From: Candidatus Latescibacterota bacterium
GTDB lineage: Bacteria; Latescibacterota; UBA2968; GCA-2709665
Assembly: GCA_965205485.1 (NCBI GenBank)
Contig: OZ242180.1
Coordinates: 2,336,001-2,400,000, forward strand
Length of the DNA: 64,000 bases
Direction of reading: 5' to 3'
Part shown: positions 32,740-55,707 of the stretch, piece after piece
How positions within the stretch are numbered: position 1 is the stretch's first letter
How the letters are laid out: every line of letters starts with the position of its first letter
Program-made: the position numbers and the translations under genes
Notes under the pieces: model-generated
What the model was told of the DNA's origin: nothing
Databases searched by the model: none
Seen by the model: only the letters and a program-made list of their open reading frames with translations

Positions 32740-32755
32740 AACGGGAATCAGCACC

Positions 32756-36484: not shown

Positions 36485-36718
36485 ACCACCTGAAATGGCA
36501 ATAAACAGTCGTAGACAGGAAATGTAGAGGTTGCGGAAATTAAAAGACCGCATATCTTTCAGGTGTAAGCGTATCATTTTGAGACACTCTTAATAGCGTG
36601 CGGTTAATTGGAATGGCAGCCGGTTCCCCGACCTTTCCAACCCCTGTAGAGAACGCGGGACTCAGGCGGTTCCCGGTTGCAATTCGATCCGTTCGCCAAC
36701 TGAAAGGGGAACTTCCCG

Positions 36719-38275
36719 ATGTCTGCCGCGGGAGCGCCCCCCCAATCACATGATGGCGCGCAGTACCGCCGGCTGTTCGGCCTGGATATCCACCTGACCC
36801 CGGTGTTCGTAATCTCCAGCATTACCATCGTCGCGTTCGTCCTGGGCTCGCTTGTCTTCCGGGAAGCCGCGACCGGGGTATTCAAGGACACCCGCGTCTG
36901 GCTTACCACGAATCTCGACTGGTTCTTTATGATCGCGGCGAACGTCGTCGTGATCTTCTGTCTCTACATCGCCTTATCGCCGCTGGGGCGGGTCCGTCTG
37001 GGAGGCGCGGACGCAAAGCCGGAATACACGAATGCGACCTGGCTTGCGATGCTCTTTGCGGCCGGCGTGGGAATCGGTCTGCTGTTCTTCGGCGTGGCGG
37101 AACCGGTCTACTATCTAAAGAACCCCCCGCTGGGTATCGCCCCGGGAACGGAAGCGGCCGCCATCGCCGGCATTGCCGCCACGACGTTTCACTGGGGACT
37201 GCACGGCTGGGCGATCTACGGCGTCGTCGGTCTGGCGCTGGGGTACTTCGCGTACAACCGCGGACTGCCGCTGACAATCCGATCCGCGTTCCATACCATG
37301 TTTGGCGACCGCATCTGGGGCTGGCCGGGGCACGTCATCGACACCTTCGCGATATTCGCGGGGCTGTTCGGGGTGGCGACGTCCCTCGGGCTGGGGGTCC
37401 AGCAGGTGACGTCCGGCTTCAACTACCTGTTCGACGTCCCGGTCAGCGGCACGACGATGGTGGCCCTGATCGTCGTGATCACCGCCGTCGCCCTGACGTC
37501 GGTGCTGACGGGTATCGACGTGGGCATCAAACGTCTGAGCCAGTTCAACGTGATCCTCGCGCTCCTGTTACTGCTTGCCGTGATCCTGCTCGGCCCCACC
37601 GCCTACGCGCTTCGGAGCATCGTGGCAGGGTTCGGCGAGTATCTGGCCCGGATTGTGCCGCTGAGCAACTGGATGGGACGCGAGGATACCGGATTCGTAC
37701 GCGACTGGACCACGTTCTATTGGGCATGGTGGTTCGCCTGGGCCCCGTTCGTGGGTACGTTCATCGCCCGGATTTCCCGGGGGCGCACGGTCCGCGAGTT
37801 CGTCGTCTTCGTACTCCTGATGCCCACAATCCTGTGCCTGCTGTGGTTTGGCGCGTTCGGCGGCACCGCCTTCCACCAGCACCTCGTGGAGGGATATACC
37901 GGGGTTACCGGCAACGTCGAAGCCTGGAAGCTTGAAATCGCACTGTTCAAAATGCTTGACAGATTGCCCGCTCCCGCGGTGCTCTCGTGTGTCGCGATGT
38001 TGTTGACGATCGTGTTTTTCGTGACGTCGTCGGACTCCGCGTCGCTGATTATCGATACGATTGCGGCAGGCGGCAGGATCGACGCCCCGGTGGCGCAGCG
38101 TGTCTTCTGGTGCACGATCGAGGGACTGGTCGCGATCGCCCTCTTGCTGGGCGGCGGACTTGAGGCGCTTCAGGCCGCTTCGCTCGCCACCGGCTTCCCG
38201 TTCGCCGTCGTTCTACTTGGAATGGCGTTCTGCGTCTGGAAAGGGCTGCGCGCTGAAATACGGGAGTCGACATGA
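36719..38275 (+). CDS. BCCT family (betaine/carnitine/choline) transporter
   Basis: WLAMLFAAGVGIGL, FHWGLHGW, WTTFYWAWWFAWAPFVGTFIARISRGRT, FFVTSSDS. Confidence 0.95.
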   Translation: MSAAGAPPQSHDGAQYRRLFGLDIHLTPVFVISSITIVAFVLGSLVFREAATGVFKDTRVWLTTNLDWFFMIAANVVVIFCLYIALSPLGRVRLGGADAKPEYTNATWLAMLFAAGVGIGLLFFGVAEPVYYLKNPPLGIAPGTEAAAIAGIAATTFHWGLHGWAIYGVVGLALGYFAYNRGLPLTIRSAFHTMFGDRIWGWPGHVIDTFAIFAGLFGVATSLGLGVQQVTSGFNYLFDVPVSGTTMVALIVVITAVALTSVLTGIDVGIKRLSQFNVILALLLLLAVILLGPTAYALRSIVAGFGEYLARIVPLSNWMGREDTGFVRDWTTFYWAWWFAWAPFVGTFIARISRGRTVREFVVFVLLMPTILCLLWFGAFGGTAFHQHLVEGYTGVTGNVEAWKLEIALFKMLDRLPAPAVLSCVAMLLTIVFFVTSSDSASLIIDTIAAGGRIDAPVAQRVFWCTIEGLVAIALLLGGGLEALQAASLATGFPFAVVLLGMAFCVWKGLRAEIREST

Positions 38276-38374
38276 AGTGGAACGCACGTTCACAGGGTCC
38301 GGAACCCAGGGACACGGCCGGGCGGATGTACCGGCTATCCAGCAAGCCTTTATAGCACAAGGCGAGGAGGCGTC

Positions 38375-41300
38375 ATGTGGTTCAGAGGTACGTATCTTTC
38401 GTTACTGGCAGGCGCTGCCATTCTTCTTTCCGCGCACGGGGTCGGAGCGCAGTCGACCGGCGCCGTGACCGGGACCGTCGTCGACGCCGAGACCGGAGAT
38501 CCGCTGGAAGGCGTTAACGTGACCATTGCCGCGCTGAACCTGGTCGAGGAGTCGGACGCGGCAGGACGCTTTACCATCCGGGACGTACCGGCGGGCACAC
38601 ACCAGCTCAGCGTGCAGCTGATCGGCTATACGGGCGAGCCGCGCACGATCACGGTCACCGCCGGCGCGACCCTTACCGTTGCGTTGAGTATGGACCTGTC
38701 GCTGCTATACATGGACGAACTCGTGGTGACCGGCACGGCCTTCAAGGAATCCCCCATCAACCAGACGTACGCGGTTGTGGCGGTCGGACGCGAGGAGATG
38801 GCGGAGCAGGGGTCTCCGCAGGCCGTCGACTTTTTCAAGAATCTCGGCGCGAGCCACGGCGTGATCGGGGAGCGCAGCAGCTGGTACAATTCAGGCCAGG
38901 CCGCCACACTCACCGAAAGCATCGCAAACGTCAACCTCCGGGGCCTGGGGGCGTCGCGCACCCTCGTGCTGATCAACAGCCGGCGACAGACTTACGTCCC
39001 GGCGCGACTGATCGGGGGCCGCTTTGTCGATGTCAACGTGATCCCCTCGATTGCCATCGAAAGGGTGGAAGTGCTCAAGGAAGGGGCTTCCGCCATATAC
39101 GGGTCGGATGCGGTTGGGGGCGTGGCCAACTTCCTCACGCGCCGGAACTTTGAGGGCTTCGAGGTTTCCGCCGCGCACGAGTACTTCCCGGGCGCGGGCG
39201 ATACCAACGCCGGCGCGATATGGGGCGGGAAACTCGGAGAAGCCCACGCGGTCGTCTCCGCCGAATGGAGGGGACGCCAGGCCTTGCCGTCCTGGGAAAG
39301 GGACTATCTGCTGCAGCCATGGCACGGCGGCGGGCAGCGCCTGGGGTGGTCGAGCCTGGGCAATCCCGGCACCTTCGCCATCGGGGCGCCGGCCCCATGG
39401 ACCGCCGCCATTCACGCCCCACGGTGCGAGGAATTCGGCGGCTTCCGGGAGTCCTGGACATGCCGGTTCCGATATCAGCAATATGAGAATCTGATCGAAG
39501 ATATGAGTCATATGCGCGCTTTTGCCGAGATCAACGGGAAGCTGGATAACGGTGCGGAGTATCACGTCGAAGGTCTGTGGGCGCAGGCCACGATTGCCGA
39601 TTGGTACACGACGCCTTCGTATCCGCCGTTTCCCCTCACGGACACGAGTATCATGGAGGTCGCGCCGGACCACCCGGGCCGGGGGGCATTCTGCGAGGAC
39701 TTCGGCGCGGACCCATCCGATCCATACTACGAGGCATGTCAGGGAGGCGAGAACTGGTACTTCAACGGACGTCCGTTCGGAAACTCGGGTCCGGGGCGAA
39801 CGCTGGACCGTGACTCTCGCACGTTGCGGCTGGCGGCTTCCATAAATGGAGACTTCGATGGATTCGGCGATCGGAAGAACCAATTTGACCTGGGTCTGTC
39901 CTATTCCCGGACCGAGGGCAACTACAACCTGCCCGGCGTGTACATCGAAAGGCTTTTCCTCGGCTTCCGGGGCTACGGAGGGCCGCGCTGCGGCGTTGGC
40001 GTGGTGGCGGATCGATCGTCGCTGGCCGGAATGCGCCTCGGCCCCCTGAGCGGTCAGGTGGCAGGGCAGGGTGACTGCCAGTATTACAATCCCTTCGGCA
40101 ATGCCATCGAGTTCACGGACCAATACGGGTCGGCGTACGCAACCCGGGCGAATCCCACCTACCGAGCCGCGCTTGCCAACAGCGAGGCGCTTCGACTCTG
40201 GCTCAACCAGGAAGTGGACATGCACAGTACGGCTGACATGCTGGTCGCCGACGCGACGCTGACCGGGACCTGGGTCGAGGACGTCGCCAGTTACGCGGCG
40301 GGCTACCAGTTCCGGCTTTTCAATGCCAGCGGGGACCCCAACGACGAGGGCGACGTCACCATCAACCCCTGTCCGGTCGTGGGCGACAGGAACTGCTCGG
40401 CGGAGGACCGATTCGGTCCCTATGCGTTCACCAATGTGCATCGCCCTTACGATGAATCCCAAACGGTGCATCGCTTCTTCGCGGAAACGCCTCTGAGCCT
40501 GGGCGAGTCGTTCGACGTACAGCTCGCGGCCAACTACGAGTTCCACGACGTGGCGAGCAGCTTCGATCCCAAGTTCGGGTGGCGCTATCAACTGATGGAA
40601 TCGCCGGACCAGTCCCTGTTCCTGCGCGGTTCTGTTCAGACGACGTTCCGCACGCCGGCGCTGGACGACGTGAATGAGAGCCCGCTCTCGACCCTCGAGT
40701 GGATCAACGAGACGGGCGCGTATCAAACGGTGGACAGAATCGGGAGCAAGGACCTCAAACCCGAACGGGCATTCACCTTTAACGCGGGCCTTGCCCTGGT
40801 CACCGAGACGGGCTTCGAGGCGACACTGGACTACTGGAGTTACGATTTCAGCGACGTGATCGGTTCCATGCCCCACGGCGCCATTACCGCCTTATACGCC
40901 GACGAAGCAAATAAGAACGCCCTGAAGCAATTCATCGTGTGTCCGGACGGAATCGGTACCGGAACCTGCGCGGCCTCGGAACTCGAGCGGGTGCAGGTGG
41001 ATATCGTCAATTGGCCGGGGCTCAAGACCTCGGGAATCGATCTGCATCTGGGTACGCGGGTGCCGCAGGGAGCAGGACTGTTCACAGCAGGCCTCGAAGG
41101 CACCTATACGCTGGCGTACGAGACAAAGGCGCTGATGCTGGGCAACCTGGTGCTGCTGGAGGATGCGGACGCCGCCGGTTACCTGAACTTCGGCAATCCC
41201 ATCGCGACGTCGCTTCCCAAGTTCAAGGGCCGGATTTCGGGGAGCTATTACTGGCAGGATTACAGTCTCGCGACCTATCTGAACTACATCTCGTCTTACG

Positions 41301-41551
41301 AGGACCGCGGGTCGATGGGCTCCGACAATTCGAAGATCAAGAGTATTTTCGGTACCATCGAATCGTATGTAACTTGGGACATGACGTTCCTGTGGAACAT
41401 GCCGAACGGGTTGAACATCGCTCTATCCGGCATGAATCTGCTCGACGCCATGCCTCCTCTCGTGAATATCGAGCAGGCCTACGACGGTTTCACCCACGAT
41501 CCCAAGGGCCGGCGGTTGAAGCTGGCCGTAACCTGGCGTCTCGGGCGATAG
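38375..41551 (+). CDS. TonB-dependent receptor with N-terminal carboxypeptidase-regulatory-like domain
   Basis: Signal peptide, ELVVTG TonB box, NLRGLGASRTLVLIN, IERVEVLKEGASAIYGSDAVGGVANF plug, NLLD...GR C-terminus; Cys-rich loops. Confidence 0.95.
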   Translation: MWFRGTYLSLLAGAAILLSAHGVGAQSTGAVTGTVVDAETGDPLEGVNVTIAALNLVEESDAAGRFTIRDVPAGTHQLSVQLIGYTGEPRTITVTAGATLTVALSMDLSLLYMDELVVTGTAFKESPINQTYAVVAVGREEMAEQGSPQAVDFFKNLGASHGVIGERSSWYNSGQAATLTESIANVNLRGLGASRTLVLINSRRQTYVPARLIGGRFVDVNVIPSIAIERVEVLKEGASAIYGSDAVGGVANFLTRRNFEGFEVSAAHEYFPGAGDTNAGAIWGGKLGEAHAVVSAEWRGRQALPSWERDYLLQPWHGGGQRLGWSSLGNPGTFAIGAPAPWTAAIHAPRCEEFGGFRESWTCRFRYQQYENLIEDMSHMRAFAEINGKLDNGAEYHVEGLWAQATIADWYTTPSYPPFPLTDTSIMEVAPDHPGRGAFCEDFGADPSDPYYEACQGGENWYFNGRPFGNSGPGRTLDRDSRTLRLAASINGDFDGFGDRKNQFDLGLSYSRTEGNYNLPGVYIERLFLGFRGYGGPRCGVGVVADRSSLAGMRLGPLSGQVAGQGDCQYYNPFGNAIEFTDQYGSAYATRANPTYRAALANSEALRLWLNQEVDMHSTADMLVADATLTGTWVEDVASYAAGYQFRLFNASGDPNDEGDVTINPCPVVGDRNCSAEDRFGPYAFTNVHRPYDESQTVHRFFAETPLSLGESFDVQLAANYEFHDVASSFDPKFGWRYQLMESPDQSLFLRGSVQTTFRTPALDDVNESPLSTLEWINETGAYQTVDRIGSKDLKPERAFTFNAGLALVTETGFEATLDYWSYDFSDVIGSMPHGAITALYADEANKNALKQFIVCPDGIGTGTCAASELERVQVDIVNWPGLKTSGIDLHLGTRVPQGAGLFTAGLEGTYTLAYETKALMLGNLVLLEDADAAGYLNFGNPIATSLPKFKGRISGSYYWQDYSLATYLNYISSYEDRGSMGSDNSKIKSIFGTIESYVTWDMTFLWNMPNGLNIALSGMNLLDAMPPLVNIEQAYDGFTHDPKGRRLKLAVTWRLGR

Positions 41552-41780
41552 CTCGAAGCGTGTGTCGGCAGGACGGTGGTGAGGAGTGGGCGTTTTGGAA
41601 GAAGGGTCCGAAGCGAGGCGGGTTTTTGGATTCCAGTTATGCGAATTTTCATGAAAAAATCATCAAAAGCAATATAATCATTGCCATTTTGTCATAACAA
41701 GTTGCTGATATAGTCTCTAACGGAGACGAGCCGGCGCATCCAGGCCGGCAATATTGAACGGACGATTGCAGTACGGCGAG

Positions 41781-41815
41781 AGACCACCCGCGTGAGGGGT
41801 GGTCTTTTTTGTTTT
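41781..41815 (+). terminator. Intrinsic terminator (end of a putative sRNA or of the TBDR transcript)
   Basis: AGACCACCC-7 nt loop-GGGTGGTCT then TTTTTGTTTT. Confidence 0.85.
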
Positions 41816-41876
41816 GGAGTTTGGGGTTGGTCAGGTCGATCAACCGAACGGCCGGGGAGTGGACTCGAAATCTTTA

Positions 41877-41980
41877 TTGACATCGTCAAACGATATACCT
41901 AAAATTCGCTCGCATCAAATGGAATCACGAAAAAATCATATTTTTCTTACGTGTCGAGAAAATAGTTCACATATGCGTAA
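41877..41980 (+). promoter_or_regulatory. Sigma70 promoter and conserved box of the NHLP export operon
   Basis: TTGACA(41877)-17 nt-TAAAAT(41900), then ATCACGAAAAAATCATATTTTTCTTAC (41924-41950). Confidence 0.75.
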
Positions 41981-42100
41981 TCCGGTCGCCGGTCTCGCGG
42001 TCCCGATGCAGACCGGCAATTTGACGGCGCGAACCTGCCTTGCAAGTTGCCAAAGATCAGATTATAACGCCGCACGCCTGATTTCCCGACCCTCTCGAAT

Positions 42101-43348
42101 ATGAATGAATCCGACCGGAACAATTCACTTGATCGTCTGAGGACGCCCGAACACCTGGACCGCGCGCTGTACGTGACAACGCCGATGACATGGCTGTGGC
42201 TCTGCGTCCTCCTGGCGCTGACCGGCGCTGTCGTTGCGTGGGGGTTCTGGGGCGAGATTTCCATCTACGTGGAGGCCGAGGGTATCTTTCTGAGTCGCAA
42301 GGGCATGGTATTCGACGCGGCGTCTGACGGCGGCGGCAGACTGGCGCGAATCACGGCCACCGTCGGACAGCAGGTTCGTGAAGGCGACGTGGTGGCTGAA
42401 ATCTTCGACGCAGAGACGAGTGAACGGCTGGAGGGAGCCGTCGCGCTCGTGGCCGAGCACAAACTGGAACTCAGGGATCGCATCGCCGAGACCAATGAGG
42501 AGAACAGGCTCGCGGCGGAGAACATCGCCAGGCAGCGAGACCGCATGGACGAGATGGAACGCATAAACCGCGAGTTGAAAGAAAAGGCCGACATGCGCCT
42601 TCAGGAGGACCGGAAGCTGTTCGCGCAGCGTATGATCGATCGGACGGCCGTCGAGCGAAGCGAACAGGCGCTGAGCGTCTTGCAGCAGAATCTGTTCGAA
42701 TTACTGCGCCGGCGGGACGCGCTCGAAGTGGACGACGTTCGGCGGCGGAGCGGCATCAATTCCCGACTCTCTCACGCAAAGGGCGAACTCCTGAAAGCCG
42801 AGTTGGACGTCAGCGAACTCAAGGCGCTTATCGAGACCTGGCGAATTCGAGCTCCGGTCTCAGGGAGGATCATCGAAATCAAGGCGCAGATTGGCGCGAC
42901 GCTCAACCCCGGAGAGTCCGTACTGAGCATTGAGACCGGTGGAGAAGGTCTGGACGTGCTTACCTATATCTCTGCCATGGATGGCAAGAGCGTCAAGGCG
43001 GGTATGTCCGTCCTTGTATCTCCCGCCACCGTCCGACGCGAGGAGTACGGCTCCATGATTGGTACTGTAGAACACGTGTCCGAGTTTCCGGCGAGTCTGA
43101 ACGGCATGGTCGCCGTGCTCCGGAACCAGGAGCTTGCCGGGACCTTCTCAGCAGCGGGCCCGCCATATCCGGCACGAATCGCGCTCATGCCGGATGCGAC
43201 GACGCGTAGCGGCTTCGCCTGGACCTCGCCGCACGCCACTCGCCTTGAAATCACACCCGGAACGCTTGCAACCGTCGAAATCCGGGAGTCCACCAAACCG
43301 CCAGCCGCGCTCGTCCTGCCATGGATCAAAGAAAAACTGAGTCATTGA
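42101..43348 (+). CDS. NHLP bacteriocin system secretion protein (HlyD-type membrane fusion protein)
   Basis: LDRLRTPEHLD, one TM helix, coiled coil, IRAPVSGRI, SPATVRREEYGSMIG, SGFAWTS. Confidence 0.93.
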   Translation: MNESDRNNSLDRLRTPEHLDRALYVTTPMTWLWLCVLLALTGAVVAWGFWGEISIYVEAEGIFLSRKGMVFDAASDGGGRLARITATVGQQVREGDVVAEIFDAETSERLEGAVALVAEHKLELRDRIAETNEENRLAAENIARQRDRMDEMERINRELKEKADMRLQEDRKLFAQRMIDRTAVERSEQALSVLQQNLFELLRRRDALEVDDVRRRSGINSRLSHAKGELLKAELDVSELKALIETWRIRAPVSGRIIEIKAQIGATLNPGESVLSIETGGEGLDVLTYISAMDGKSVKAGMSVLVSPATVRREEYGSMIGTVEHVSEFPASLNGMVAVLRNQELAGTFSAAGPPYPARIALMPDATTRSGFAWTSPHATRLEITPGTLATVEIRESTKPPAALVLPWIKEKLSH

Positions 43349-45541
43349 ATCCCTCGCCCTGAGCTGCATCCGAACCTCCGGTCCGATCGGGGCGGGCGTT
43401 TCAGGACGCCGACGATCCTGCAAATGGAGACCACGGAGTGCGCGGCCGCTTGTCTGGGCATCATTCTCGCCTATCACGGACGATGGGTACCCCTCGAAGC
43501 GCTGCGGGTACGCTGCGGCGTCTCCAGGGACGGCGCCAATGCCGCCAATATGTTGAATGCGGCGCGGGAATACGGCCTTATTGCCCGGGGTTTCCGCAGT
43601 CAGCACCAGCAATTGTTCGACGTCCCGTTTCCCATGGTGGTCTTCTGGGAGTTCAACCATTTCGTCGTTCTCGAAGGGATCAAAGGCGACAGGGTCTATA
43701 TCAACGATCCCGGCGAAGGCCCTCGAAGGATAACGATGCAGGAGTTCGTGCAGGGCTTCGCGGGCGTCTGCTTCGGTTTCGCGCCTTCGGCCGGGTTCAG
43801 TCCGGGCGGACAGCAGCCCAATCTGGTTCGCGGACTGCGCGACCGCTTTGGCGAGGCGGGAAGTCCGTTTGCGTTTGCGGCGCTGGCGACCCTGGCCCTC
43901 GTTGTGCCCGGCGTGGCCGTCCCGACCCTGATCAAGGTATTCATAGACGATGTACTCATCGGGCAGAACAGCGCCTGGGTGTCTCCGATGCTGATCGGAC
44001 TGGCCTTCGCGGCTGTTGTCCAGGGCGCGCTGACCTGGCTGCAGCGCATCCTCCTTGCAAGGATGGAGACCAAGCTGTCCGTTATCTCGACGGTGCGCTT
44101 TTTCTGGCACGTCGCGACGTTGCCGATGTTGTTCTTCAGCCAGCGCTATGCGGGTGACATCGCCAGCCGCGTGGCGTCGAATGACACGGTCGCACGGCTG
44201 CTTTCCGGCGAACTGGCCATCAATGCGATAAACGTATTCACGATGGTGTTCTATGCGCTGGTCATGTTATCGTACGACGTTCCGCTGACGTTGATCGCAT
44301 TGGGGATGGTCGCCATAAATCTGATCGTGCTGCGTTTCGCGGCACGCGCCCGCGAAAACGCCAACCGCAGGCTTCTCAAGGAGAAGGGCAGGGTTGCCGG
44401 CGCCTCCATAAACGGCATCAGGATCATCGAGACGTTCAAGGCCAACGGTACCGAGGACGATTTCTTCGCCCGATGGTCCGGTATCCACGCCAATGCGCTT
44501 CGCGCCCAGCAGAGCCTCGATTACGTATCGACCGTTGCGAACGTGGCGCCCGTTCTGCTCTCGGCGCTTACCGCCATCATCGTCCTGGGATACGGAGGTA
44601 TTCGCATCCTCGACGGGGCGCTTTCCATCGGCGGGCTGATCGCCTTTCAGAGTCTCACGCTGAGTTTCTCACGACCTGTTGAGGGTCTGGTTCGGTTCGG
44701 CGCCAGTCTACAGATGATCAGGGCCGATATCGGCCGGCTCGACGACGTCCTGAACTACGCCCCCGACGAGCGAACGCTCAGTGGCATCAACACGGGAGCG
44801 CCTGTATCGGACGCACCCGTACCCCGGGGTTCTATCGATCTCGAAGGCGTGACGTTCGGTTACAATGCCACGGATCCGCCCCTGATCGAGGATTTCAGCC
44901 TTTCCATCAGGCCGGGCCGCCGCGTGGCGCTGGTGGGCGCATCGGGAAGCGGAAAGTCGACAGTCGCCAGGATGGTATGCGGTCTGCTGACCCCCTGGTC
45001 CGGAACCGTGCGCATCGACGGTCAGGCATTCGAGGACGTCCCTCCCGCCCGTTTCGCCGAAATCGTGTCCTACGTCGACCAGGAGGTTGTCCTGTTCGAG
45101 GACAGCGTGCGGGAAAACGTCACGCTGTGGGACCCCGATATCGAAGAACGCGACGTGGTACAGGCGCTCAGGGATGCCGCGATCCATGACGTCGTCTCTG
45201 CAAGGCCGATGAAGTACGATTGCCCCGTCAGCGAGGGAGGGCGCAATTTCAGTGGCGGTCAGCGGCAGCGCCTGGAAATCGCGCGTGCGCTTGTGAGGAA
45301 TCCGGCCGTACTGGTGCTCGACGAGGCCACCGCCGCGCTGGACCCGATTACCGAGGTCGAGATCGACGACCACCTTCGACGCCGCGGATGCTCCTGCCTC
45401 ATCATCGCCCACAGGCTGAGTACCATCAGAGACGCGGACCAGATTGTTGTTCTCGACCGGGGCCGTATCGTCCAGCGCGGCACACACGACAGCCTGATCG
45501 CGAAAGACGGCCTTTACAGAACCCTGGTCATGTCGGATTGA
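43345..45541 (+). CDS. NHLP export ABC transporter, C39 peptidase/permease/ATPase (true start upstream of called ATG 43424; probable +1 frameshift at about 43357)
   Basis: RTPTILQMETTECAAACL (Cys), FNHFVV (His), INDP (Asp), GASGSGKST, FSGGQRQR, LDEAT. Confidence 0.93.
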
Positions 45542-45545
45542 CACG

Positions 45546-48488
45546 ATGTCTGAAATACCCCTCATCGAACGCATACGCGGCGTCCGGATCGAAACCGGCG
45601 CCCACCGGCCGTTCCCGATGGACGACACGGCCGTTGTCTACTTTGTCGAACGGGGATACCTGGACGTCTTCGCCGTCGAACTCGAAGGCAACGAAGCCGC
45701 GGGACGCCGGAACTTCGTCGCCCGCGTTCCGGCCGGAGAAATGGCCTTTGGCGCGGACACCATCAGGCATCCGGTTCAGCCTCATCGCACGTTCGGATTC
45801 CTCGCCGTGCCATCTCTCGACGGGGTCATCGTACGGGGAGAGCGGGACGGCGTCGCTTCGGACGAGTTCGATCTTGCCGCGACCAGCTGGATCGACGAAT
45901 GGATTTCCCGGGTCTCGGAATTCGTGGTTCGGGACCGGCCGCCGCCCCGGGACGCACAGTTGCTGGAGGCGGAACCGGACGTTTCCTATGCAGCCGGCAG
46001 CGTGCTCAGCGCTCAGCATATGGACGTCATCTGGGTTGGCGCGGATGCGCAGATGCGCCTTGCAGGGCGCGATGCACTGGCCGTGCCGGCGGGCAGTCCG
46101 CTCGTGCCGGTCATCGAGCGAACATGGCTGCAGATCGACGCCGACGCGACGGTGTCCGCATTCTATACGCCAACTGCCCTTCTCACGGACCGGTTCTGGG
46201 AAGCGTTTGAGCGTTTCGGTACGCGAATCCTGGAATTCGCCATTCTTGCCGAGTCTGAATCGGTTGGGAACCTGCAGACCCGACGCCGCAATGCGCACGA
46301 AATCAGGAGAACTTCGGTTACGCGGGCCCTCGGCGGATTCGAGAGAATTCTGGCCGGGCCCGGCGACAACGCGACCGCCACCGTAAGCGACGGAACGCCG
46401 CTTCAAGCGGCGGCAGCCATCGTGGCTTCTTCGTGCGGGGCCTCGCTGGAGATTCCGTCGACCTCCGGGGAAGCACAGACGTCCGTGGAGGCCGTCGAGA
46501 GGATTGCCCGCAGGTCCGGGATCCGGACGCGATGGATTTCGCTGGCACCAGGATGGTGGCGGAAGGACGGACCTTCCCTGGTGGGTTTCAAAGCCGGGGA
46601 AGGCGGCACGGACCGGCCGCTCGCGCTCATTTCCGACAACCGCGGCACGTACCGGGCAATTGATCCGGTCACGAGCGAATCTTTTGTGGTCAACGAAAGC
46701 AACGCGGGGGGGATCACCCCGGGCGGCATGGCTTTCTACGCGCCGCTGCCCAACCACATCGAGTCGGGCGGGTCCGTACTTCGATTCTCGCTGCATCGCC
46801 GCGGTGGGGATCTTCGTACGGTGTTATTGGTGGGCATCGTGGGCGGGATGGCTTCACTCCTGACGCCGATACTTACCGGCGAGATTCTCGTCCGCATCAT
46901 TCCCCGGGCAGAAATCTCCCTGTGGTCTGTCGCACTGATCGCGCTGTTGTTGGCTGCTTTCGGGAACGCGGTCTTCGAGATCGTGCGCGGAATCGCCCTG
47001 CTGAGGATCGAGGGTCGCGTCGACGAGCGCCTCCAGTCCGCCATCTGGAGCAGGCTGATTGCGCTTCGCGCGCCGTTCTTTCGCGACTACACGGTGGGGG
47101 ACCTTGAGAATCGCGCGAACGGAATCAGCGAGATCAGACGCATCATCTCCTTCGCGGCCGTGGGCGCGGCCATGGGCGGCATCTTTTCCGTATTCAACCT
47201 CGCATTGCTCTTCTACTACAGCTGGTCACTCGCTTTGTACGTCTGTGGGTTGCTGTTCGTCCTGGTGGGTGCGGCATGGTTTCTGGCAAGGGGGCAGCTT
47301 CGTCATTATCGTGACGTATTTCGCATTCAGGGAGCGATCAACGGGTTCGTATTTCAACTGATAACCGGCCTGGCCAAGCTTCGGGTCGCCAATTCAGAGA
47401 CATTCGCGCTGGCGCGCTGGGCCCGGCGCTTCGCCCGGCAGAAGCAGGCCGCCTTCTCCGCGCTGAAGTGGACCGCGGGGCAATACGTCGTTGTCGGTAT
47501 GTTTCATCCCCTGGCGCTTATCGTCATCTTCGAGTCGGTGCAGCACGCCATACTGGACGGGAGAGGATCGGCATTCGACCTGGCGGGTTTTCTGTCCTTC
47601 AATGCCGCGTTCGGCCAGCTCACAGGCGCAGTATTTGCCCTCACCTCCGCCGCGGCAACCGCAATCGCCGTGATCCCGCTTCTCGAGCGCGTACGACCGA
47701 TTTTCAATGCCACGCCCGAAACCGCGGACGGACGCATCGAGCTTTCGGACATAAAGGGCGAGCTGGAATTCTCGAGCGTGAACTTTCGATACGGTCCGGA
47801 TGCATCAAAGGCGATCGACAGCGTATCGTTTCGAATCCGGCAGGGCGACTACGTCGCGTTCGTGGGACCCTCCGGCTGCGGAAAATCAACCGTCTACCGC
47901 CTGTTGCTCGGCTTCGAGCGGCCGGAGTCAGGGACGGTGTTTCTGGACGGGCACGACCTGTCCAGCCTGGACCTGACGACCCTCCGCAGGCATATGGGCG
48001 TCGTCCTGCAGAACGGCCAGATTGTCGCCGGAAATATATTCGAGAATATCGCCGGGATGTCTCCGTTGAGCGATGAAGAGGCGTGGGCTGCCGCCAGGGC
48101 GGCTGCGCTCGAAGACGATATACGGGCGATGCCGATGGGTATGCATACCATCCTGCCGGAAGGCGGTGTGGGTCTTTCGTCAGGACAGAAGCAGCGTTTG
48201 CTGATCGCGCGCGCATTCGCCCGCAAGCCGCGCATTCTGCTTTTCGACGAGGCCACCAGCGCCCTGGACAACCGGGCGCAGGCAGTGGTACAATCGTCCC
48301 TGAAGGGGTTGGGGGTGACCCGTGTCGTCATTGCTCACCGGCTGAGCACCATCCGCGACGTGGACAGAATCTTCGTGATGGACGCCGGGCGTATCGTGGA
48401 AAGCGGCAGCTTCCGGCAGCTTGTCGAGCACAACGGGGTCTTTGCCGCGCTCGCGCGGCGTCAGACGCTTCAGTCAACGAATGCGTAG
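45546..48488 (+). CDS. NHLP export ABC transporter permease/ATPase subunit (no peptidase)
   Basis: N-terminal VYFVERGYLDVF cNMP-like domain, permease, GPSGCGKST, LSSGQKQR, FDEATSALDN. Confidence 0.93.
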   Translation: MSEIPLIERIRGVRIETGAHRPFPMDDTAVVYFVERGYLDVFAVELEGNEAAGRRNFVARVPAGEMAFGADTIRHPVQPHRTFGFLAVPSLDGVIVRGERDGVASDEFDLAATSWIDEWISRVSEFVVRDRPPPRDAQLLEAEPDVSYAAGSVLSAQHMDVIWVGADAQMRLAGRDALAVPAGSPLVPVIERTWLQIDADATVSAFYTPTALLTDRFWEAFERFGTRILEFAILAESESVGNLQTRRRNAHEIRRTSVTRALGGFERILAGPGDNATATVSDGTPLQAAAAIVASSCGASLEIPSTSGEAQTSVEAVERIARRSGIRTRWISLAPGWWRKDGPSLVGFKAGEGGTDRPLALISDNRGTYRAIDPVTSESFVVNESNAGGITPGGMAFYAPLPNHIESGGSVLRFSLHRRGGDLRTVLLVGIVGGMASLLTPILTGEILVRIIPRAEISLWSVALIALLLAAFGNAVFEIVRGIALLRIEGRVDERLQSAIWSRLIALRAPFFRDYTVGDLENRANGISEIRRIISFAAVGAAMGGIFSVFNLALLFYYSWSLALYVCGLLFVLVGAAWFLARGQLRHYRDVFRIQGAINGFVFQLITGLAKLRVANSETFALARWARRFARQKQAAFSALKWTAGQYVVVGMFHPLALIVIFESVQHAILDGRGSAFDLAGFLSFNAAFGQLTGAVFALTSAAATAIAVIPLLERVRPIFNATPETADGRIELSDIKGELEFSSVNFRYGPDASKAIDSVSFRIRQGDYVAFVGPSGCGKSTVYRLLLGFERPESGTVFLDGHDLSSLDLTTLRRHMGVVLQNGQIVAGNIFENIAGMSPLSDEEAWAAARAAALEDDIRAMPMGMHTILPEGGVGLSSGQKQRLLIARAFARKPRILLFDEATSALDNRAQAVVQSSLKGLGVTRVVIAHRLSTIRDVDRIFVMDAGRIVESGSFRQLVEHNGVFAALARRQTLQSTNA

Positions 48489-48538
48489 ATCGTAAGGGGA
48501 CATGCCCCGACAATCTCCGGTGGGTCCATACGCCGGGG

Positions 48539-48663
48539 TTGACATGCGACGGAAAATCGTTATATTTGCCTTGTGGTAAATATCACGAAAAGATCATGTT
48601 TTCTTACCGTATTAGACCGAAAATATCACGAATAATGCGATAAATATAATTATCATCACGAAA
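48539..48663 (+). promoter_or_regulatory. Sigma70 promoter and conserved box of the RiPP precursor
   Basis: TTGACA(48539)-16 nt-TATATT(48561), then ATCACGAAAAGATCATGTTTTCTTAC (48582-48607); ATCACGAA repeated at 48625 and 48655. Confidence 0.7.
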
Positions 48664-48702
48664 CATTCACTTCTTCTCACCACTCCAAACCAGGGGGCCA
48701 CG

Positions 48703-49017
48703 ATGAAGACCATGCAGGAAATGCAGGACCACGTCGTATTCAAAGCGTCTTCCGACGCGCAGTTTCGTGCCAGTCTGCTGAAGAATCCCAAGGGCTCAAT
48801 AGAAAAAGAGCTCGGCGTGAAGATTCCGGAGAATTTCTCGGTCGAAATTCACGAAGACAACCTGACGACCGCGCACCTGGTTCTTCCGCTGAGAAACGGA
48901 CCGGAGGCGATGAGCGAGGACGAGTTGGCGGCGGTTGTGGGCGGTGCAGGCGCAGAGAACTGTGAATGGGGTCACGATCATCACGACGAATACCACGTTC
49001 CGTTGGGAGGTCCCTGA
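48703..49017 (+). CDS. NHLP-leader RiPP precursor; 81-aa leader plus 23-aa core AGAENCEWGHDHHDEYHVPLGGP
   Basis: KASSDAQFRASLLKNPK...HLVLP...MSEDELAAVVGG double-glycine cleavage motif; adjacent to the NHLP transporter trio. Confidence 0.93.
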   Translation: MKTMQEMQDHVVFKASSDAQFRASLLKNPKGSIEKELGVKIPENFSVEIHEDNLTTAHLVLPLRNGPEAMSEDELAAVVGGAGAENCEWGHDHHDEYHVPLGGP

Positions 49018-49089
49018 TCGTTCGAAGAATCTTGCCGAGACTTCAGGAGGCGAGGTCAGGAATCCCGCATGGTTATACGACGTATTTTC

Positions 49090-49121
49090 CCGGTGCCGCC
49101 CGAAGGCGGCGCCGGTTTTTT
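49090..49121 (+). terminator. Intrinsic terminator between precursor and maturase
   Basis: CCGGTGCCGCC-CGAA-GGCGGCGCCGG then T6. Confidence 0.85.
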
Positions 49122-49195
49122 CGTACGTGCGATGCGAAGTGAGAAGAACGGAACGGCCTGATTGCGTACAACACGGTTTGACGAAGGAGCTGACG

Positions 49196-50287
49196 ATGCC
49201 GGAGCGCCTCAGGGTGATTTCACCGGAATCGCGCCGTTTCATTCCGTCGGAACTCGTCGCCGGTCACGGCTGGGACCGCCTGGTGCGCCGGGTCGGCGAA
49301 CTTCCCGGCTGGCCGGTGTTGAACAGGGTGTTCTTCGAGTTCGGCCTCGGAGACCCCGCGCCCGTTGCCGACTTCTCCGTCCGCGTCCTTCCGGGGCATC
49401 CGGGATTGCCTGGCCACTTCGTCAATCGGGGAAGGACGGCCCGGCAGAATTCCGCGGCTGCCGCGCTGGGCAGATTCCTTTCAGATTTTGCGGATGCTCG
49501 GGCGGGGTCCGGATCCGCCTTGAGCGCCAGGTTCAACGATATCATGCTCGAATACGATATCGCCGGAATCAAGACGGAAGCATCACCGGATCCCGGATTG
49601 TTTCTGGGATTGCGGCCCGCCGCGTCGCCGGACGATTCAGAGGTCCGTTCTCCACGAGACGTGGTTGCAGAGTTGACGAATGCGGTAGGATGGAATGTTG
49701 ACACCGGCGAGCGCCGGGTTGTGGAACGGATCGTCAAGGCGCTCCCGCCGGGGGGTCGGCTGGATCACGTGGGAGCGATGCCCGGCCGCTCCGTCAGGGC
49801 CGTGCGTGTGATTGTCAACGGCATTACGTCGGAGGAAATGCCGGTTTTCCTGGAGCGCGCCGGCTGGCCGGGTTCGGTACGAAACGTGATGGACGCCCTT
49901 GTTGAATGGCGTGACGTATTTCCGTACTTTCGACCCTGTTTCGACGCTTCCGCTCGCGGCTTGCGTCCGCGTCTCGGACTCGAGATGTTTCCGCGAAGTG
50001 AAAGAAAGGGCCGCTGGCCGGTGGGGGATTGGCTCAATACGGGTATCCGGACATGGCTGCCGGTTCTGGAACGCCTGGAGGAGCGGGAACTGTGTCTGCC
50101 GGCAAAGGGTAACGGCTTGCGTGTCTTCCCGGGACTGGAACGGGTTTTCGACAAGAACGGTGTGTATATGCTTCACAAGGGACTCAACCACGTCAAACTG
50201 GCGATCGAAGATGGCGGCGTACAGGCCAAAGCATATGCCGGCCTCAGATTGCTGCGGTTCGGTCCGGAAGCGGCTGCAATGCCCTGA
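49196..50287 (+). CDS. Uncharacterised RiPP maturase, probably ABBA-fold prenyltransferase-like
   Basis: AAGGAG RBS. Motif series FEFGL..ADFS, MLEYD, PGLFLG, GAMPGR..AVR, PRLGLE, LC.PAK..L..FPG, GLNHVKL, AKAY resembles proteins I recall beside NHLP/Nif11 precursors. The CDS is solid; the function is inference. Confidence 0.5.
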   Translation: MPERLRVISPESRRFIPSELVAGHGWDRLVRRVGELPGWPVLNRVFFEFGLGDPAPVADFSVRVLPGHPGLPGHFVNRGRTARQNSAAAALGRFLSDFADARAGSGSALSARFNDIMLEYDIAGIKTEASPDPGLFLGLRPAASPDDSEVRSPRDVVAELTNAVGWNVDTGERRVVERIVKALPPGGRLDHVGAMPGRSVRAVRVIVNGITSEEMPVFLERAGWPGSVRNVMDALVEWRDVFPYFRPCFDASARGLRPRLGLEMFPRSERKGRWPVGDWLNTGIRTWLPVLERLEERELCLPAKGNGLRVFPGLERVFDKNGVYMLHKGLNHVKLAIEDGGVQAKAYAGLRLLRFGPEAAAMP

Positions 50288-50507
50288 TTCGGCGGTCGAA
50301 CGGTGACACATTTCCGGAACGGAACACCAGAGCCAAAGAAACGGTTGCAGACGCTGTCATTGAAGCGCATATTGTCATTGCACGTCCCGCATTTGGACGC
50401 GATCCCGGGTCGAGGGTATGGGGAAGACGGTAGACCAAAAGTGGTAAGACGGGAGCTTGCACATAAATGAACTCACGTCACCGAAAACCGACGAATCCTG
50501 GTCTAAG

Positions 50508-51002
50508 ATGAACAAACGCGAAGACTATCTCTCGTGGGACGAATATTTCATGGGCGTCGCGCTGCTCTCCGCCCTCAGGAGCAAGGACCCCAACACCCGC
50601 GTCGGCGCATGCATCATCAACGAGAAAAAGAAAATCGTGGGCATCGGCTATAACGGCCTGCCGATCGGCTGCTCGGACGACGAGTATCCGTGGGCAAGAG
50701 AGGGGGACTTTCTCGACACCAAGTACCCGTACATATGCCACGCCGAACTCAACGCGATCCTGAACAAGATCGACACCAACCTCTACAACTGCACGATCTA
50801 CGTTACGCACTTTCCGTGCAACGAATGCGCGAAAGTGATCATTCAATCCGGCATTCGGGAAGTCATCTACCTGGCGGACAAATACGCGGAAACCGAACCC
50901 GTCATGGCCTCCAAACGCATGTTCGACAGCGCCGGAGTCGACTACCGCCGGCTCACCGGGTACCGGGATCACCTGCACATCGAATTCAAAGACCTTTCCT
51001 GA
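50508..51002 (+). CDS. dCMP deaminase (ComEB family)
   Basis: RSKDPNTRVGACI, GYNG, CHAELNAI, FPCNECAK. Confidence 0.93.
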   Translation: MNKREDYLSWDEYFMGVALLSALRSKDPNTRVGACIINEKKKIVGIGYNGLPIGCSDDEYPWAREGDFLDTKYPYICHAELNAILNKIDTNLYNCTIYVTHFPCNECAKVIIQSGIREVIYLADKYAETEPVMASKRMFDSAGVDYRRLTGYRDHLHIEFKDLS

Positions 51003-51026
51003 TATTGGATCAGAGAGGAAGCCGAA

Positions 51027-51863
51027 ATGCCGGCCACGGATCCCTGGCTGCCGGTTGGACCGGACCTGAAAACCGTCAACGCGGCGTACGAAAATCCGCT
51101 CAAAGCCCTTTCAGCGGCCGAGATACCGGCCATCCTCCTGCCTCGGTCCTACGACCCGGCCCACTGTGCCGGCCTGATTCGCCGTTTCATAGACCGCGGC
51201 CTGATGCGGGATCCCGCGGACACGGAATCCGACGATGCCCGAACCCGAATCGACATCGGCACCAGCCTGGGGAACCTGGGTAACGACCGGGAGCGATTTC
51301 TCGATCACGCCGTAAAGACTCACGACCTGTTCGGGGATCTCTTCAACGGATTCGACAATCCGGTCGACGTCATCTATGACAGCCTCACCGCCCTCGCGGC
51401 GGGTAAACGGGTGTTGACGGCGCGCGAACCAGACGGCCGCCTTTACGGACCGGCCATCTTCCGCATCCACTACACCCACCACACCTACCGGCCGCACATC
51501 GACCACGTCACGCTGCGCGAAAAACGCTTCAATTACGATGTCTCCCGGTTCGAACACCAGTTCGCCGGCATCCTCTGCTTTCAAAACGCGGCTCAGGCCG
51601 GGCCGGCGACCCAGGCGATCCTGCACCGGTGCCTGTGGACGGAAGACGTCGAGGCGCACATTGCCGAAAACGCCTTTCACGAATACGCCCGGCTGAACGA
51701 CGTCGGACAGTGCCGCGTCGAGCTTGAACCGGGCGATCTCTACTTCTTCAACACCCGCTGCATCCACGAGGTCCCCGCGGTCGAGGGAACAGACCCCAGA
51801 ATCGTCCTGGCCGTCTTCATCGGCTGGTCAGACGACGACGGCGAGGTCTACGTCTGGGCGTAG
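51027..51863 (+). CDS. 2OG-Fe(II) oxygenase-like protein
   Basis: PHID (HxD), PGDLYFFN..IHEV distal His, downstream Arg (PRIV). Confidence 0.7.
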   Translation: MPATDPWLPVGPDLKTVNAAYENPLKALSAAEIPAILLPRSYDPAHCAGLIRRFIDRGLMRDPADTESDDARTRIDIGTSLGNLGNDRERFLDHAVKTHDLFGDLFNGFDNPVDVIYDSLTALAAGKRVLTAREPDGRLYGPAIFRIHYTHHTYRPHIDHVTLREKRFNYDVSRFEHQFAGILCFQNAAQAGPATQAILHRCLWTEDVEAHIAENAFHEYARLNDVGQCRVELEPGDLYFFNTRCIHEVPAVEGTDPRIVLAVFIGWSDDDGEVYVWA

Positions 51864-51950
51864 CGTTATCCCGCCACAAGTCGGAATCTGTCGCCCACAG
51901 TGTCATTTTCACGATGGGAATTCGCGGGTTGCGTCCCGGAATCCGCCGCC

Positions 51951-53336
51951 ATGGCTGAAACCCTGTATCGGGGAAACCTCCTTCCCGAGCGTCCTGCCCT
52001 CCGCGACGTCAGGTCCGTTCTGCCCGACTACCGCGCTATGCTGCTTGCGGTGATGGCCGCCATCGCGGATCGGTACGAACACGAGCCCGACTACCCCTTC
52101 ATCGATACCAAGCTGGACCTCATCTCCGGAGAGGACTTCCCGCCGGACGATCCCGTAAGGGGTGCGAACGCGGTCTTCGGCTGGATTCAGGGTCGCGGCC
52201 TCGAATCCCTGGCCGGGCACTGCCGATGGATGCGCCGTCACAATCTGGCGCCGGAACTTCGGCGGCGCCTGGAGAGAATCACGTCGGACGTGCTCGCGGT
52301 ACTGCTAGACATTCGCGCCAGAAACGCCGGCCGCCTGTCCTTTTTCATGTCACCCGATGGAAACCCGTTCACGCTGGACGAGAATGGCGGGATCCGGACG
52401 CTGCAGCTCACGGAGGAATCGCACTATGGATTCAGCGACCTCTTCAGCGCCAAGGGCATGGTTGCCGCGGCGAGATACCTCGAGTTGCTGGATGCCGAAG
52501 CGGAAGCCATGGAATACTGCCGCCGGGTGGACGATGCAATTCACGAAGGCGGGTTCACCACCGACCAGATTTCGCTGGATCCGATGAATCCCGCCGGTCC
52601 CCGACCGGGACGCCATCCCCACGGCGCGTACATGATTCAGATCGGCGCCGCCGCCGTGCTGGCCGAACACCGTATTTCCGACAGCGTGGAAATGGGTCTG
52701 CGCCTCATTCGACACGAAATGCGGACCTACGTCAATCTGGGCGGGCGGGTGCCGCGTCTCCGGGAGTACGACTTCTGGGAAGCGGTGGACGACGACGGCC
52801 GGCCCTTCGAGGAGGACGGCAGGATCCTTTCCGATCCGGGCCACGTCCTCGAGTTCATCGGCCTGACGCTGAAATTCGCCTCGGCCGTCAGAGAAAACGC
52901 GCTGGCGGATGCCGAACAACTTACGGAAATCGCGGACGTCGAAGCCCATATGCCCGCGCTGCTCGCGCATACCTTCGCGGGAGGCTTCCAACCCGGTCCC
53001 GGCGGCATCTGCAAGGTGTTCGACCTGATTTCCCGCGCACCCGCCAATACCGACATGCCGTGGTGGAACCTTCCTGAAACGCTGCGCGCCGCCGCGTACT
53101 GCTTTTCGATTGCCTCATCCACGGCACAGCGGCAGGACGCTCTGAGCATATTCAGCGCGTGCCACAACGCCTTCACAAGGCACTTCGTTCGTCCGGACCT
53201 CCATCTGATGGCCTATCAGACGCGAAACGAAGCCGGACAGGTCGTGCCGGTCATTCCCGCTACCGCGGATGCGGACCCGGGATACCACACGGGTCTGAGC
53301 ATCATCGACGTACTCGAAATCTTCGAGAATGCGTAG
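51951..53336 (+). CDS. AGE (N-acylglucosamine 2-epimerase)-like (alpha/alpha)6 protein
   Basis: WIQGRG, HPHG, DPGHVLEF, MPWWNLPE, DPGYH. Confidence 0.7.
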   Translation: MAETLYRGNLLPERPALRDVRSVLPDYRAMLLAVMAAIADRYEHEPDYPFIDTKLDLISGEDFPPDDPVRGANAVFGWIQGRGLESLAGHCRWMRRHNLAPELRRRLERITSDVLAVLLDIRARNAGRLSFFMSPDGNPFTLDENGGIRTLQLTEESHYGFSDLFSAKGMVAAARYLELLDAEAEAMEYCRRVDDAIHEGGFTTDQISLDPMNPAGPRPGRHPHGAYMIQIGAAAVLAEHRISDSVEMGLRLIRHEMRTYVNLGGRVPRLREYDFWEAVDDDGRPFEEDGRILSDPGHVLEFIGLTLKFASAVRENALADAEQLTEIADVEAHMPALLAHTFAGGFQPGPGGICKVFDLISRAPANTDMPWWNLPETLRAAAYCFSIASSTAQRQDALSIFSACHNAFTRHFVRPDLHLMAYQTRNEAGQVVPVIPATADADPGYHTGLSIIDVLEIFENA

Positions 53337-53359
53337 CCAGACGCACTAGACGGGAAGCC

Positions 53360-54022
53360 ATGCGCCTCGAGATCAAAAACCTTTCACTTCGGTACGGCAC
53401 AAAAAAACCGCTGTTTCAACGCGTGGACCTCACCGTTGACAGCGGAGACTTCGTCCTCATCCACGGGCCGTCGGGAAGCGGTAAATCCAGCTTCCTCAGG
53501 CTGCCCAACCGGCTGCAGGAGCCCTCATCGGGCGACATTCTGCTAGACGGCAGCCCGGTGTCTCGCCACAACGTCACCGAACTGCGGCGAATGGTCGGTT
53601 ACGTCCAGCAGACGCCCGCGATGGCCGGGGGCAACATTCGTACCAACCTGACCCTGTCATTCACGTTCAAAGCCGGACGGGAACGGCAACAGCCGGACGG
53701 AGACCGGCTCAGAGGCCTCCTGGACGAATTCCTGCTTCAGGACGTGGACCTCGACGACGACGCGGAAACCCTGTCCGTAGGGCAGAAACAGCGGATCGCC
53801 CTGATCCGTGCGCTGCTGTCCGAACCCGGCTTTCTCCTCTGCGACGAACCCACTTCCGCCCTCGACCCCGAGTCCAAATCCGTGGTGGAAACATGGCTGG
53901 AACGACTCGCGCTGGAACAGAACATCGGCATCTTGCTGGTGACGCACCTGGACTTCACGCCCGTTCGAGTCAGGGCCCGGCGATACCGGCTCGACGGCGG
54001 TCTTCAGGAGGTCTCCGCTTGA
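53360..54022 (+). CDS. ABC ATP-binding protein (FetA/YbbL-like)
   Basis: GPSGSGKSS, LSVGQKQR, CDEPTSALD; coupled to a FetB-like permease. Confidence 0.85.
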   Translation: MRLEIKNLSLRYGTKKPLFQRVDLTVDSGDFVLIHGPSGSGKSSFLRLPNRLQEPSSGDILLDGSPVSRHNVTELRRMVGYVQQTPAMAGGNIRTNLTLSFTFKAGRERQQPDGDRLRGLLDEFLLQDVDLDDDAETLSVGQKQRIALIRALLSEPGFLLCDEPTSALDPESKSVVETWLERLALEQNIGILLVTHLDFTPVRVRARRYRLDGGLQEVSA

Positions 54023-54792: not shown

Positions 54793-54797
54793 ACTGG

Positions 54798-55583: not shown

Positions 55584-55707
55584 TTCACTCCCTCCTTGAG
55601 TCGACACCCTGTGCCACAACCGGCGCCTTCGGTAAACGAGCGAGGCCGCAGTCCGGCTGCGCGACGCGCTCTCGACCTCTCGAAGCGTCGTCTTCTGCGT
55701 GTGACGT

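Follow-up and report, generated by a model that had tools for sequence, protein, structure and literature searches.

A predicted ABBA-barrel prenyltransferase as the sole maturase of an NHLP-leader peptide cassette in a Candidatus Latescibacterota genome

How is an NHLP-leader peptide matured when the only further gene beside its exporter encodes a protein of no annotated family? The question is raised by a 64,000-nucleotide stretch of Candidatus Latescibacterota DNA (assembly GCA_965205485.1, contig OZ242180.1, positions 2,336,001 to 2,400,000; referred to here as the window), which carries a cassette of five genes: an NHLP exporter trio, one precursor and one protein without family. An initial annotation of the window described these genes as a self-contained NHLP/proteusin unit with a single maturase, and as an undescribed subclass of ribosomally synthesised peptides with post-translational modification (RiPPs). 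The first description agrees with the boundaries obtained by comparison with empty sites in related genomes; the second was too strong, because tryptophan prenylation of long-leader RiPPs has been published, and "uncharacterised stand-alone variant" fits better. By modelling, the unannotated protein is an ABBA-barrel prenyltransferase, with prenyl transfer as its predicted activity. The cassette is likely to yield a linear, singly prenylated proteusin, in which Trp8 of the core would be prenylated by this enzyme and the peptide exported.

Assignment of the maturase

The protein had been left as an unknown by the initial annotation. This holds in so far as no significant match was obtained against Pfam, NCBIfam or PDB sequences; 28 alignment members were likewise without a Pfam match, and Atlas gave only leads below 0.9, to DUF5838, Trp_DMAT and PTase_Orf2. 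Its kind can nonetheless be named. An AlphaFold model built from 28 homologues (predicted local distance difference test, pLDDT, 86.6) forms a beta-barrel. All 37 of the matches listed by Foldseek are ABBA prenyltransferases (best E 6.6e-6), and comparison with 48,161 chains by using VIA gave 19 ABBA chains at Z 11.4–15.4 (root-mean-square deviation 4.2–5.0, 253–309 residues aligned), followed by the next fold at 5.7.

A second line of evidence was provided by a Moorena locus (L110), which was located by searching for the published MppE core. It contains a LanM gene, two arginase-like genes, a halogenase gene and a 77+7-residue Nif11 precursor ending in ACWRWSG, and its gene content fits the published mpp-type cluster. 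The gene beside its precursor matches the family over its full length (hidden Markov model E 2.3e-55, hhalign 99.9%, BLAST 23% identity). These alignments identify the enzyme as a full-length homologue of this MppC-like gene, which is the orthologue of another strain and not the published MppC sequence. A scan for further MppC-like loci returned the query only.

The family profile matches 3,645 clusters at 50% identity. Residues E48, D59, E119, D121, R198, R204, K304, H332, K334, K345 and Y347 are 92–99% conserved in 156 full-length homologues and are all kept here; E48, R198, R204, K304, H332, K334, K345 and Y347 are common to the family and the MppC-like protein. E48 and the Lys, Arg and Tyr residues presumably correspond to the catalytic residues of solved ABBA enzymes (first-strand Glu, diphosphate site). 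The reading frame of the enzyme is intact in all six genomes that carry the cassette, as is the ribosome-binding site before its start. A longer frame of 450 amino acids from 48935 was rejected: it overlaps the precursor, and homologues have about 363 residues. In one database protein of 679 amino acids (P0165), the prenyltransferase domain occurs twice in tandem.

Binding of the precursor was modelled as an enzyme–precursor complex, which scored 0.42 against 0.01 for the best control, with runs agreeing in at least 51% of contacts and a partner pLDDT of at least 69. Of solved complexes, 116/157 attained the mark, as did 2/215 mismatches; at scores of 0.60 or less it was attained by just 18/157 and by both mismatches. 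The model weakly supports binding of the leader by the enzyme.

Tryptophan in the cores of homologous loci

Loci containing a homologue of the enzyme (52) were compared, and the five from its own genus were dropped from out-of-genus counts. Precursor rows that did not reach the end of the leader (profile position <76) were discarded, as were control cores of more than 80 or fewer than three residues. An NHLP precursor is present in 44/52 loci and in 39/47 outside the genus, so the maturase homologues do not lack an association with such precursors, the outcome that the initial annotation had named as speaking against its proposal. Of the 92 distinct out-of-genus cores, Trp was present in 88 (17–25 expected from background); the corresponding numbers are 25 for His, 33 for Tyr and 10 for Cys. 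These counts are not independent, the loci being related and found with motifs of this clade. Trp is terminal in 59 of these cores and solely internal in 20.

As a control, NHLP cores were gathered regardless of the enzyme. Trp was found in 31/33 cores within 10 kb of a homologue versus 6/24 farther off; five of these six distant Trp cores belong to genomes with the enzyme elsewhere, and in genomes where no homologue was found 1/12 cores contained Trp. Among 168 genomes of the window's phylum, the enzyme is present in 8/11 NHLP-positive genomes and a precursor in 8/9 enzyme carriers; the corresponding figures for 151 genomes of another order are 9/14 and 9/11. With genomes that are related to each other, these figures describe a pattern and do not amount to a test. 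Because neighbouring cores carry Trp near the enzyme, the likely target in the window is Trp8 of the core and not His.

In a quick tree the window clade groups with enzymes of Dehalococcoidia/SAR202 (support 93). The cores of that group have internal Trp (e.g. FGAFWG), often as W-G, as in the window core.

Several loci showed further features. Orphan Trp-core NHLP precursors with the prenyltransferase elsewhere in the genome (L122, L125, L127, L119, L131) might be modified in trans. Arrays of about 10–14 NHLP precursors with variable Trp cores were seen at L030, L032, L033, L034 and L041, and near-identical array cores in Gamma-, Alphaproteobacteria and Binatia records suggest transfer between phyla. 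In another member of the window's phylum, L028:10867-13344 encodes five NHLP precursors with long hydrophobic Trp-ending cores, a YcaO protein and a distant prenyltransferase homologue. At L117:4539-5540, an NHLP precursor beside a homologue has a 161-residue "core", the later part of which resembles Hint (intein-like) domains by eye. An srp-like cluster (L133:1244-6707; YcaO, LCCCW precursor, halogenase) contains a full-length prenyltransferase homologue directly after the YcaO gene, and from this gene content the srp product may be prenylated.

Core conservation and choice of the acceptor

The precursor (48703–49017, 104 amino acids) lies above the curated TIGR03793 cut-off, and its leader ends in a double glycine. 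In 65 related precursors, leader positions 70 and 75 are occupied by Leu with a conservation of at least 90%, and G81 never varies. The core that follows VVGG was correctly described at the outset as His-rich, acidic and free of Ser/Thr; it has 23 residues (four His, five Asp/Glu, one Trp, one Tyr, one Cys) and a computed monoisotopic mass of 2526.04 when unmodified. In the genome, the genuine NHLP precursor and the enzyme are each encoded once. A second NHLP-like match in the genome, a 206-residue frame below the cut-off, was rejected and reads by eye as a nitrile hydratase alpha subunit.

In the six genomes, 11 core codons vary synonymously and one non-synonymously. The ratio of non-synonymous to synonymous polymorphism (pN/pS) is 0.02 for the core, 0.20 for the leader, 0.23 for HlyD and 0.30 for the enzyme; the core is under strong purifying selection. 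Here a single core is near-fixed, and many related loci carry up to about 14 variable cores. Trp is retained in 8/8 distinct-source relatives of this core (five, and three further database precursors, the latter conserving W-G-H-D-H-H-D-E-Y-H-V-P). None of the 92 related cores has three or more His, so the His-rich tail is lineage-specific. The informative residue is the single Trp, which had been passed over in the initial annotation.

The same enzyme and route with the acceptor switched to a His of the tail (or to Tyr or Cys), instead of or besides Trp, is improbable. Besides the His-rich core, unique among the 92 cores, the clade-specific Gly-to-Phe change two residues before Glu48 speaks for it; this position lies in the first barrel strand and may point inwards. 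FunA and AuraA, which act on His/imidazole, rank high among the VIA matches, but Trp enzymes lie level with them to within 1 Z unit. All relatives retain Trp, and MppC gave no product when Trp was replaced by His or Tyr (PMC12715784).

Prenylation of Trp8 by an active barrel has to be held against a number of observations. The four His and the Tyr of the core are as invariant as the Trp, and conservation therefore cannot pick the acceptor residue. Trp here is preceded by Glu or Ala; Asp or Asn precedes the last Trp in 48 related cores. Eight of the 47 loci have no precursor in the fetched flank, and 4/92 cores are without Trp. The MppC-like gene comes from another strain, the published W336/F340 numbering does not transfer directly, and its product has an insert of about 16 residues that the enzyme lacks, because of which leader binding may differ. 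Barrel-strand position 46 is Phe in this clade and Gly in 128/156 homologues, 12/14 Phe carriers belonging to this clade; Phe46 is the sole hint in the sequence of an altered acceptor or donor. The structural matches are distant (5–16% identity) and include PatF, an ABBA member that is reportedly inactive.

PatF, the lower constraint on the enzyme than on the core, and a G+C content at third codon positions that is the lowest for the enzyme among the four long cassette genes would agree with a barrel that no longer prenylates and serves in binding, as a chaperone or in other chemistry, an unmodified Cys/His/Asp metal-binding peptide being exported. This is very unlikely: every family-invariant acidic and basic residue is retained, the frame is intact in 6/6 genomes and pN/pS is well under 1. 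For a metal-binding peptide, regulation by metal is unsupported, because the Fur-box-like site upstream of the precursor is not conserved in relatives. This site (48639; 15/19 against the consensus, with eight such genome matches, one of them counted on both strands) was rejected as a feature.

Extent and distribution of the cassette

A DNA search with window positions 36700–56400 across the genus found the cassette in 5/14 same-genus genomes; the other nine have an empty site, in which the TonB receptor gene is followed by the dCMP deaminase gene at a distance of 246–436 bases. Because these genomes lack the five genes and keep the flanks, the cassette consists of exactly five genes. The cluster is a genuine, bounded RiPP cassette. 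Terminal repeats that mark it were searched for and none found. At its right edge (50285–50503), short stretches match many sites in genus genomes and possibly represent a small repeated element. When flanking genes were placed in a FastTree rooted at the midpoint, the six carriers grouped into a single clade that encloses one non-carrier (G014), a topology that fits one gain and one loss.

The TonB receptor gene upstream, and the dCMP deaminase, WelO5-like oxygenase and AGE-fold genes downstream, were considered as parts of the cluster and rejected, being retained in empty-site genomes. The WelO5-family 2OG-Fe oxygenase gene (51027–51863) lies 740 bp downstream and is present in 15/15 genus genomes; it belongs to the flank because the nine cassette-free genomes have it too. 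Together with the dCMP deaminase and AGE-fold (weak family match) genes it forms a genus-wide block (50457–53336) unrelated to the cassette.

As initially reported, YcaO, LanM, radical SAM and flavin halogenase were absent among the 47 open reading frames (ORFs) scanned in the window, several of which have no family. YcaO was not found in the whole genome, and no close halogenase was found there by tblastn. LanM was not detected by tblastn/BLAST in the genome or in the 52 related loci; a LanM domain search of the genome also gave no match, as did its controls.

The cassette might instead be a partial pathway whose product is completed by enzymes encoded elsewhere, such as the WelO5-like oxygenase, given its proximity, or two weak Trp_halogenase-family loci distant in the genome. 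Accessory enzymes (cyclases, JmjC, FAD oxidases, YcaO or halogenases) do occur in 29/52 related loci, but 23/52 have none of the seven enzymes queried, the same queries gave just one weak FAD-oxidase match in this genome, and the oxygenase is present in all nine cassette-free genomes, which makes this reading barely credible. Terpene-cyclase-like genes were found in 7/52 loci (e.g. L054:5454-6545, weak AstC match, E 0.003), echoing NctPC and mppD, and JmjC genes lie beside the enzyme in 6/52. A 337-aa frame without a Pfam match (L070:5147-6160) recurs near the enzyme in nine loci.

Close relatives are labelled as metagenome-assembled genomes of Gemmatimonadota or Ca. Latescibacterota. For a minority of the records, the label of one run, an exactly matching 172-base contig and a family name among the homologues suggest life in sponges.

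Exporter, promoters and further features

The features of the cassette are collected in Table 1. The five genes are located where the initial annotation had placed them, and the exporter trio and the precursor pass the curated TIGRFAM cut-offs.

Table 1. Features of the cassette (window coordinates).
Feature	Position	Strand	Evidence
Terminator-like hairpin near left edge of cassette	41778..41808	+	Kept in 6/6 cassette genomes; empty-site intergenic region differs
Sigma-70-like promoter before hlyD	41877..41905	+	11/12 consensus matches; -35 kept in 6/6 genomes
CACGAAAAAATCA motif after hlyD promoter, recurring before precursor, after its promoter; putative function	41925-41939	+	Repeat families D1/D2; kept in 6/6 genomes
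HlyD-type membrane-fusion protein, NHLP exporter	42101..43348	+	TIGR03794, 237.7 bits (cut-off 156.2)
C39 peptidase/ABC transporter	43424..45541	+	TIGR03796, 975 (cut-off 853.3); PF03412
Second ABC permease/ATPase, NHLP exporter	45546..48488	+	TIGR03797, 804.4 (cut-off 709.4)
Sigma-70-like precursor promoter, TTGACA-16-TATATT	48539..48566	+	Both hexamers kept in 6/6 genomes
NHLP leader, 81 aa, M70-x4-L75 and G80-G81	48703..48945	+	TIGR03793, 64.3 (cut-off 50.9)
Core AGAENCEWGHDHHDEYHVPLGGP and stop; Trp8 (48967-48969) predicted prenylation site	48946..49017	+	Sequence, codon variation, family pattern
Terminator-like hairpin, 11 bp then T run, precursor/enzyme spacer	49090..49115	+	Mostly kept in 6 genomes
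Predicted ABBA-barrel peptide prenyltransferase, MppC-related, 363 aa	49196..50287	+	AlphaFold model, Foldseek, VIA, homology to MppC-like gene

The catalytic residues of the C39 domain (Cys6, His79 and Asp95, numbered from 43424) are intact, as had been noted, though one extra base breaks the 5′ extension of the gene in this assembly. In 5/5 relatives, the peptidase frame opens about 100 bases earlier, at an ATG overlapping the end of hlyD, and the extension comprises about 34 conserved residues, including an RTPTILQ stretch with Gln directly before METTEC. In the window, one extra base in the C-run at 43351–43353 puts the upstream ATG out of frame. A contig of an independent DNA run (X5), which matches the cassette near-exactly, has one base fewer at 43351 (depth 13/13). 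The extra base is either an assembly error or a strain-level lesion, and the former is the likelier reading because the X5 contig does not contain it. A real insertion that cripples the exporter in this strain, which would be compatible with the other readings, is doubtful: the window does lack the in-frame upstream start of its relatives, but the base falls within a short homopolymer and no decay is seen in the remainder of the cassette. TolC-family genes are present elsewhere in the genome.

The hairpin in the spacer varies in two genomes: both loop and stem are altered in G002, and one arm is shorter in G004. Over its entire length, the spacer shows no better folding than shuffled sequences (z -1.1). 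The hairpin is likely to give an excess of precursor mRNA over that of the enzyme. Just inside the left edge (41649–41808), a conserved promoter-like site and a terminator about 100–130 bases apart could specify a small RNA; an Rfam search gave no RNA family. An exact 172-base contig (48780–48951, depth 3.1) from an RNA run labelled sponge metagenome was considered as evidence of transcription and set aside, because its share is small, this very stretch had led to the run, and carry-over of DNA is possible. Elsewhere in the window, several long ORFs (13059–14531, 21572–24592, 30034–33015 and 33987–35174) gave no Pfam match at E 1e-5.

Comparison with known systems

The cassette is a proteusin system by leader and exporter and an ABBA system by fold; it is not of the lanthipeptide, cyanobactin, PalQ or srp type. 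Enzymes of the cyanobactin F-family (PagF, PatF, DciF and LimF) use an ABBA barrel on peptide side chains, as predicted here. They are leader-independent, act after proteolysis and belong to PF19156, whereas neither PF19156 nor cyanobactin proteases were found among the scanned ORFs.

NctPC, a cyanobacterial prenyltransferase-cyclase, reportedly stands in a proteusin context. According to a review (PMC13290415), NctPC is an ABBA prenyltransferase of low similarity to the cyanobactin enzymes that acts on Trp, as is predicted here. By the same review, it is a fused enzyme in which cyclisation follows geranylgeranylation (PMC13290415), whereas here no cyclase is contained in the cassette and none was found in the genome.

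MppC geranylates Trp at indole C5 in a leader-dependent manner (PMC12715784), and by analogy leader-dependent prenylation would be expected here. By the mpp reports (PMC12715784, PMC11791876), MppC/MppE and the present system have in common the enzyme family (through the orthologue in L110), the ABBA fold, a long structured leader ending in GG and a Trp core. The leader of MppE is of the Nif11 type, and MppC works best on a core cyclised by LanM, in contrast to the NHLP leader and linear core found here; the mpp cluster of Moorena producens lacks a transporter peptidase domain and encodes LanM, arginases, a terpene synthase, a halogenase and an oxygenase (PMC12715784, PMC11791876). In the window, the enzyme is the sole maturase and shares 23% identity with the MppC-like enzyme, and a full NHLP exporter trio is present. 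The product is not an mpp-type prenylated lanthipeptide, the core having no Ser/Thr and LanM giving no match.

PalQ/PalX of Paenibacillus alvei (PMC10853753) is likewise minimal, with an NHLP precursor, one Trp prenyltransferase and a linear core, and the leader enhances activity. By the same source, the fold of PalQ is that of isoprenoid synthases (ComQ-like), its substrate must end in Trp, and it has a histidine kinase neighbour (PMC10853753), in contrast to the predicted ABBA fold, internal Trp and exporter trio of the window. The model is a beta-barrel and not the all-helical isoprenoid-synthase fold, so the enzyme is not of the PalQ/ComQ type.

The srp sponge proteusins SrpE/SrpC/SrpI share the NHLP leader, a Trp core and an NHLP exporter with the cassette (PMC10286304, bioRxiv 2022.04.01.486688). 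The cassette is not an srp cluster, as YcaO, a brominase and a poly-Cys/LCCCW-type core are absent. Several enzymes, cupin-4 among them, are listed for NHLP clusters in a sponge-metagenome survey, in which prenylation is nowhere mentioned. No characterised stand-alone ABBA-prenylated linear NHLP peptide, nor this core, turned up in the literature searched, key subscription papers and the MppC supplement with its mined clusters lying outside the search. Trp prenylation of long-leader RiPPs is already published for MppC, NctPC and PalQ, and the cassette is a variant of the prenylated proteusins, not a new class.

Proposed route and role

In the proposed route, the precursor would have a promoter to itself and be transcribed more abundantly than the enzyme, as the promoter and hairpin suggest. 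By comparison with MppC, the ABBA enzyme would bind the structured NHLP leader, ionise an allylic diphosphate from primary metabolism (two polyprenyl synthases are encoded in the genome) and alkylate the indole of Trp8, the acceptor indicated by the family pattern; a C10 prenyl chain is a guess from MppC. The C39 domain would then cleave after G80-G81, leader positions 70, 75 and 81 matching those of 65 related leaders. Export of the 23-mer would be achieved by the ABC pair and HlyD, which are members of the exporter families, with a TolC encoded elsewhere.

A receptor-specific lipopeptide signal is the foremost candidate for the role of the product, with a chance somewhat short of even. It is favoured over metal binding or killing because the core is invariant and no immunity gene is present. 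A membrane-anchored metal binder that uses the Cys/His/Asp tail is considerably less probable, and an antimicrobial slightly less so again. A broader proposal is unlikely as a whole, namely that the product is a lipidated metal-binding peptide (prenyl-Trp anchor and fixed Cys/His4/Asp-Glu site) or the first leader-dependent His-prenylated proteusin, made by a stand-alone enzyme with a clade-specific change in its active site, and that it is the fixed member, passed on vertically, of a linear prenyl-peptide family found in uncultured bacteria of at least six phyla that also supplies an unrecognised step to the cryptic srp clusters.

Significance

As Trp prenylation of long-leader RiPPs was already published, the finding is moderately surprising. 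Through it, an unannotated family that neither Pfam nor NCBIfam models becomes an enzyme open to testing, for which the substrate residue is named and masses are predicted. A specific partner, either a receptor or a metal, is suggested by the invariance of the His-rich core, which contrasts with the variable libraries of cores at related loci. If the proposed route is correct, leader-dependent ABBA prenylation would extend from cyclised cyanobacterial to linear NHLP peptides and could provide a tool for site-specific lipidation. It would also explain NHLP clusters that seem to have no maturase, and the presence of the homologous gene in the srp-like cluster.

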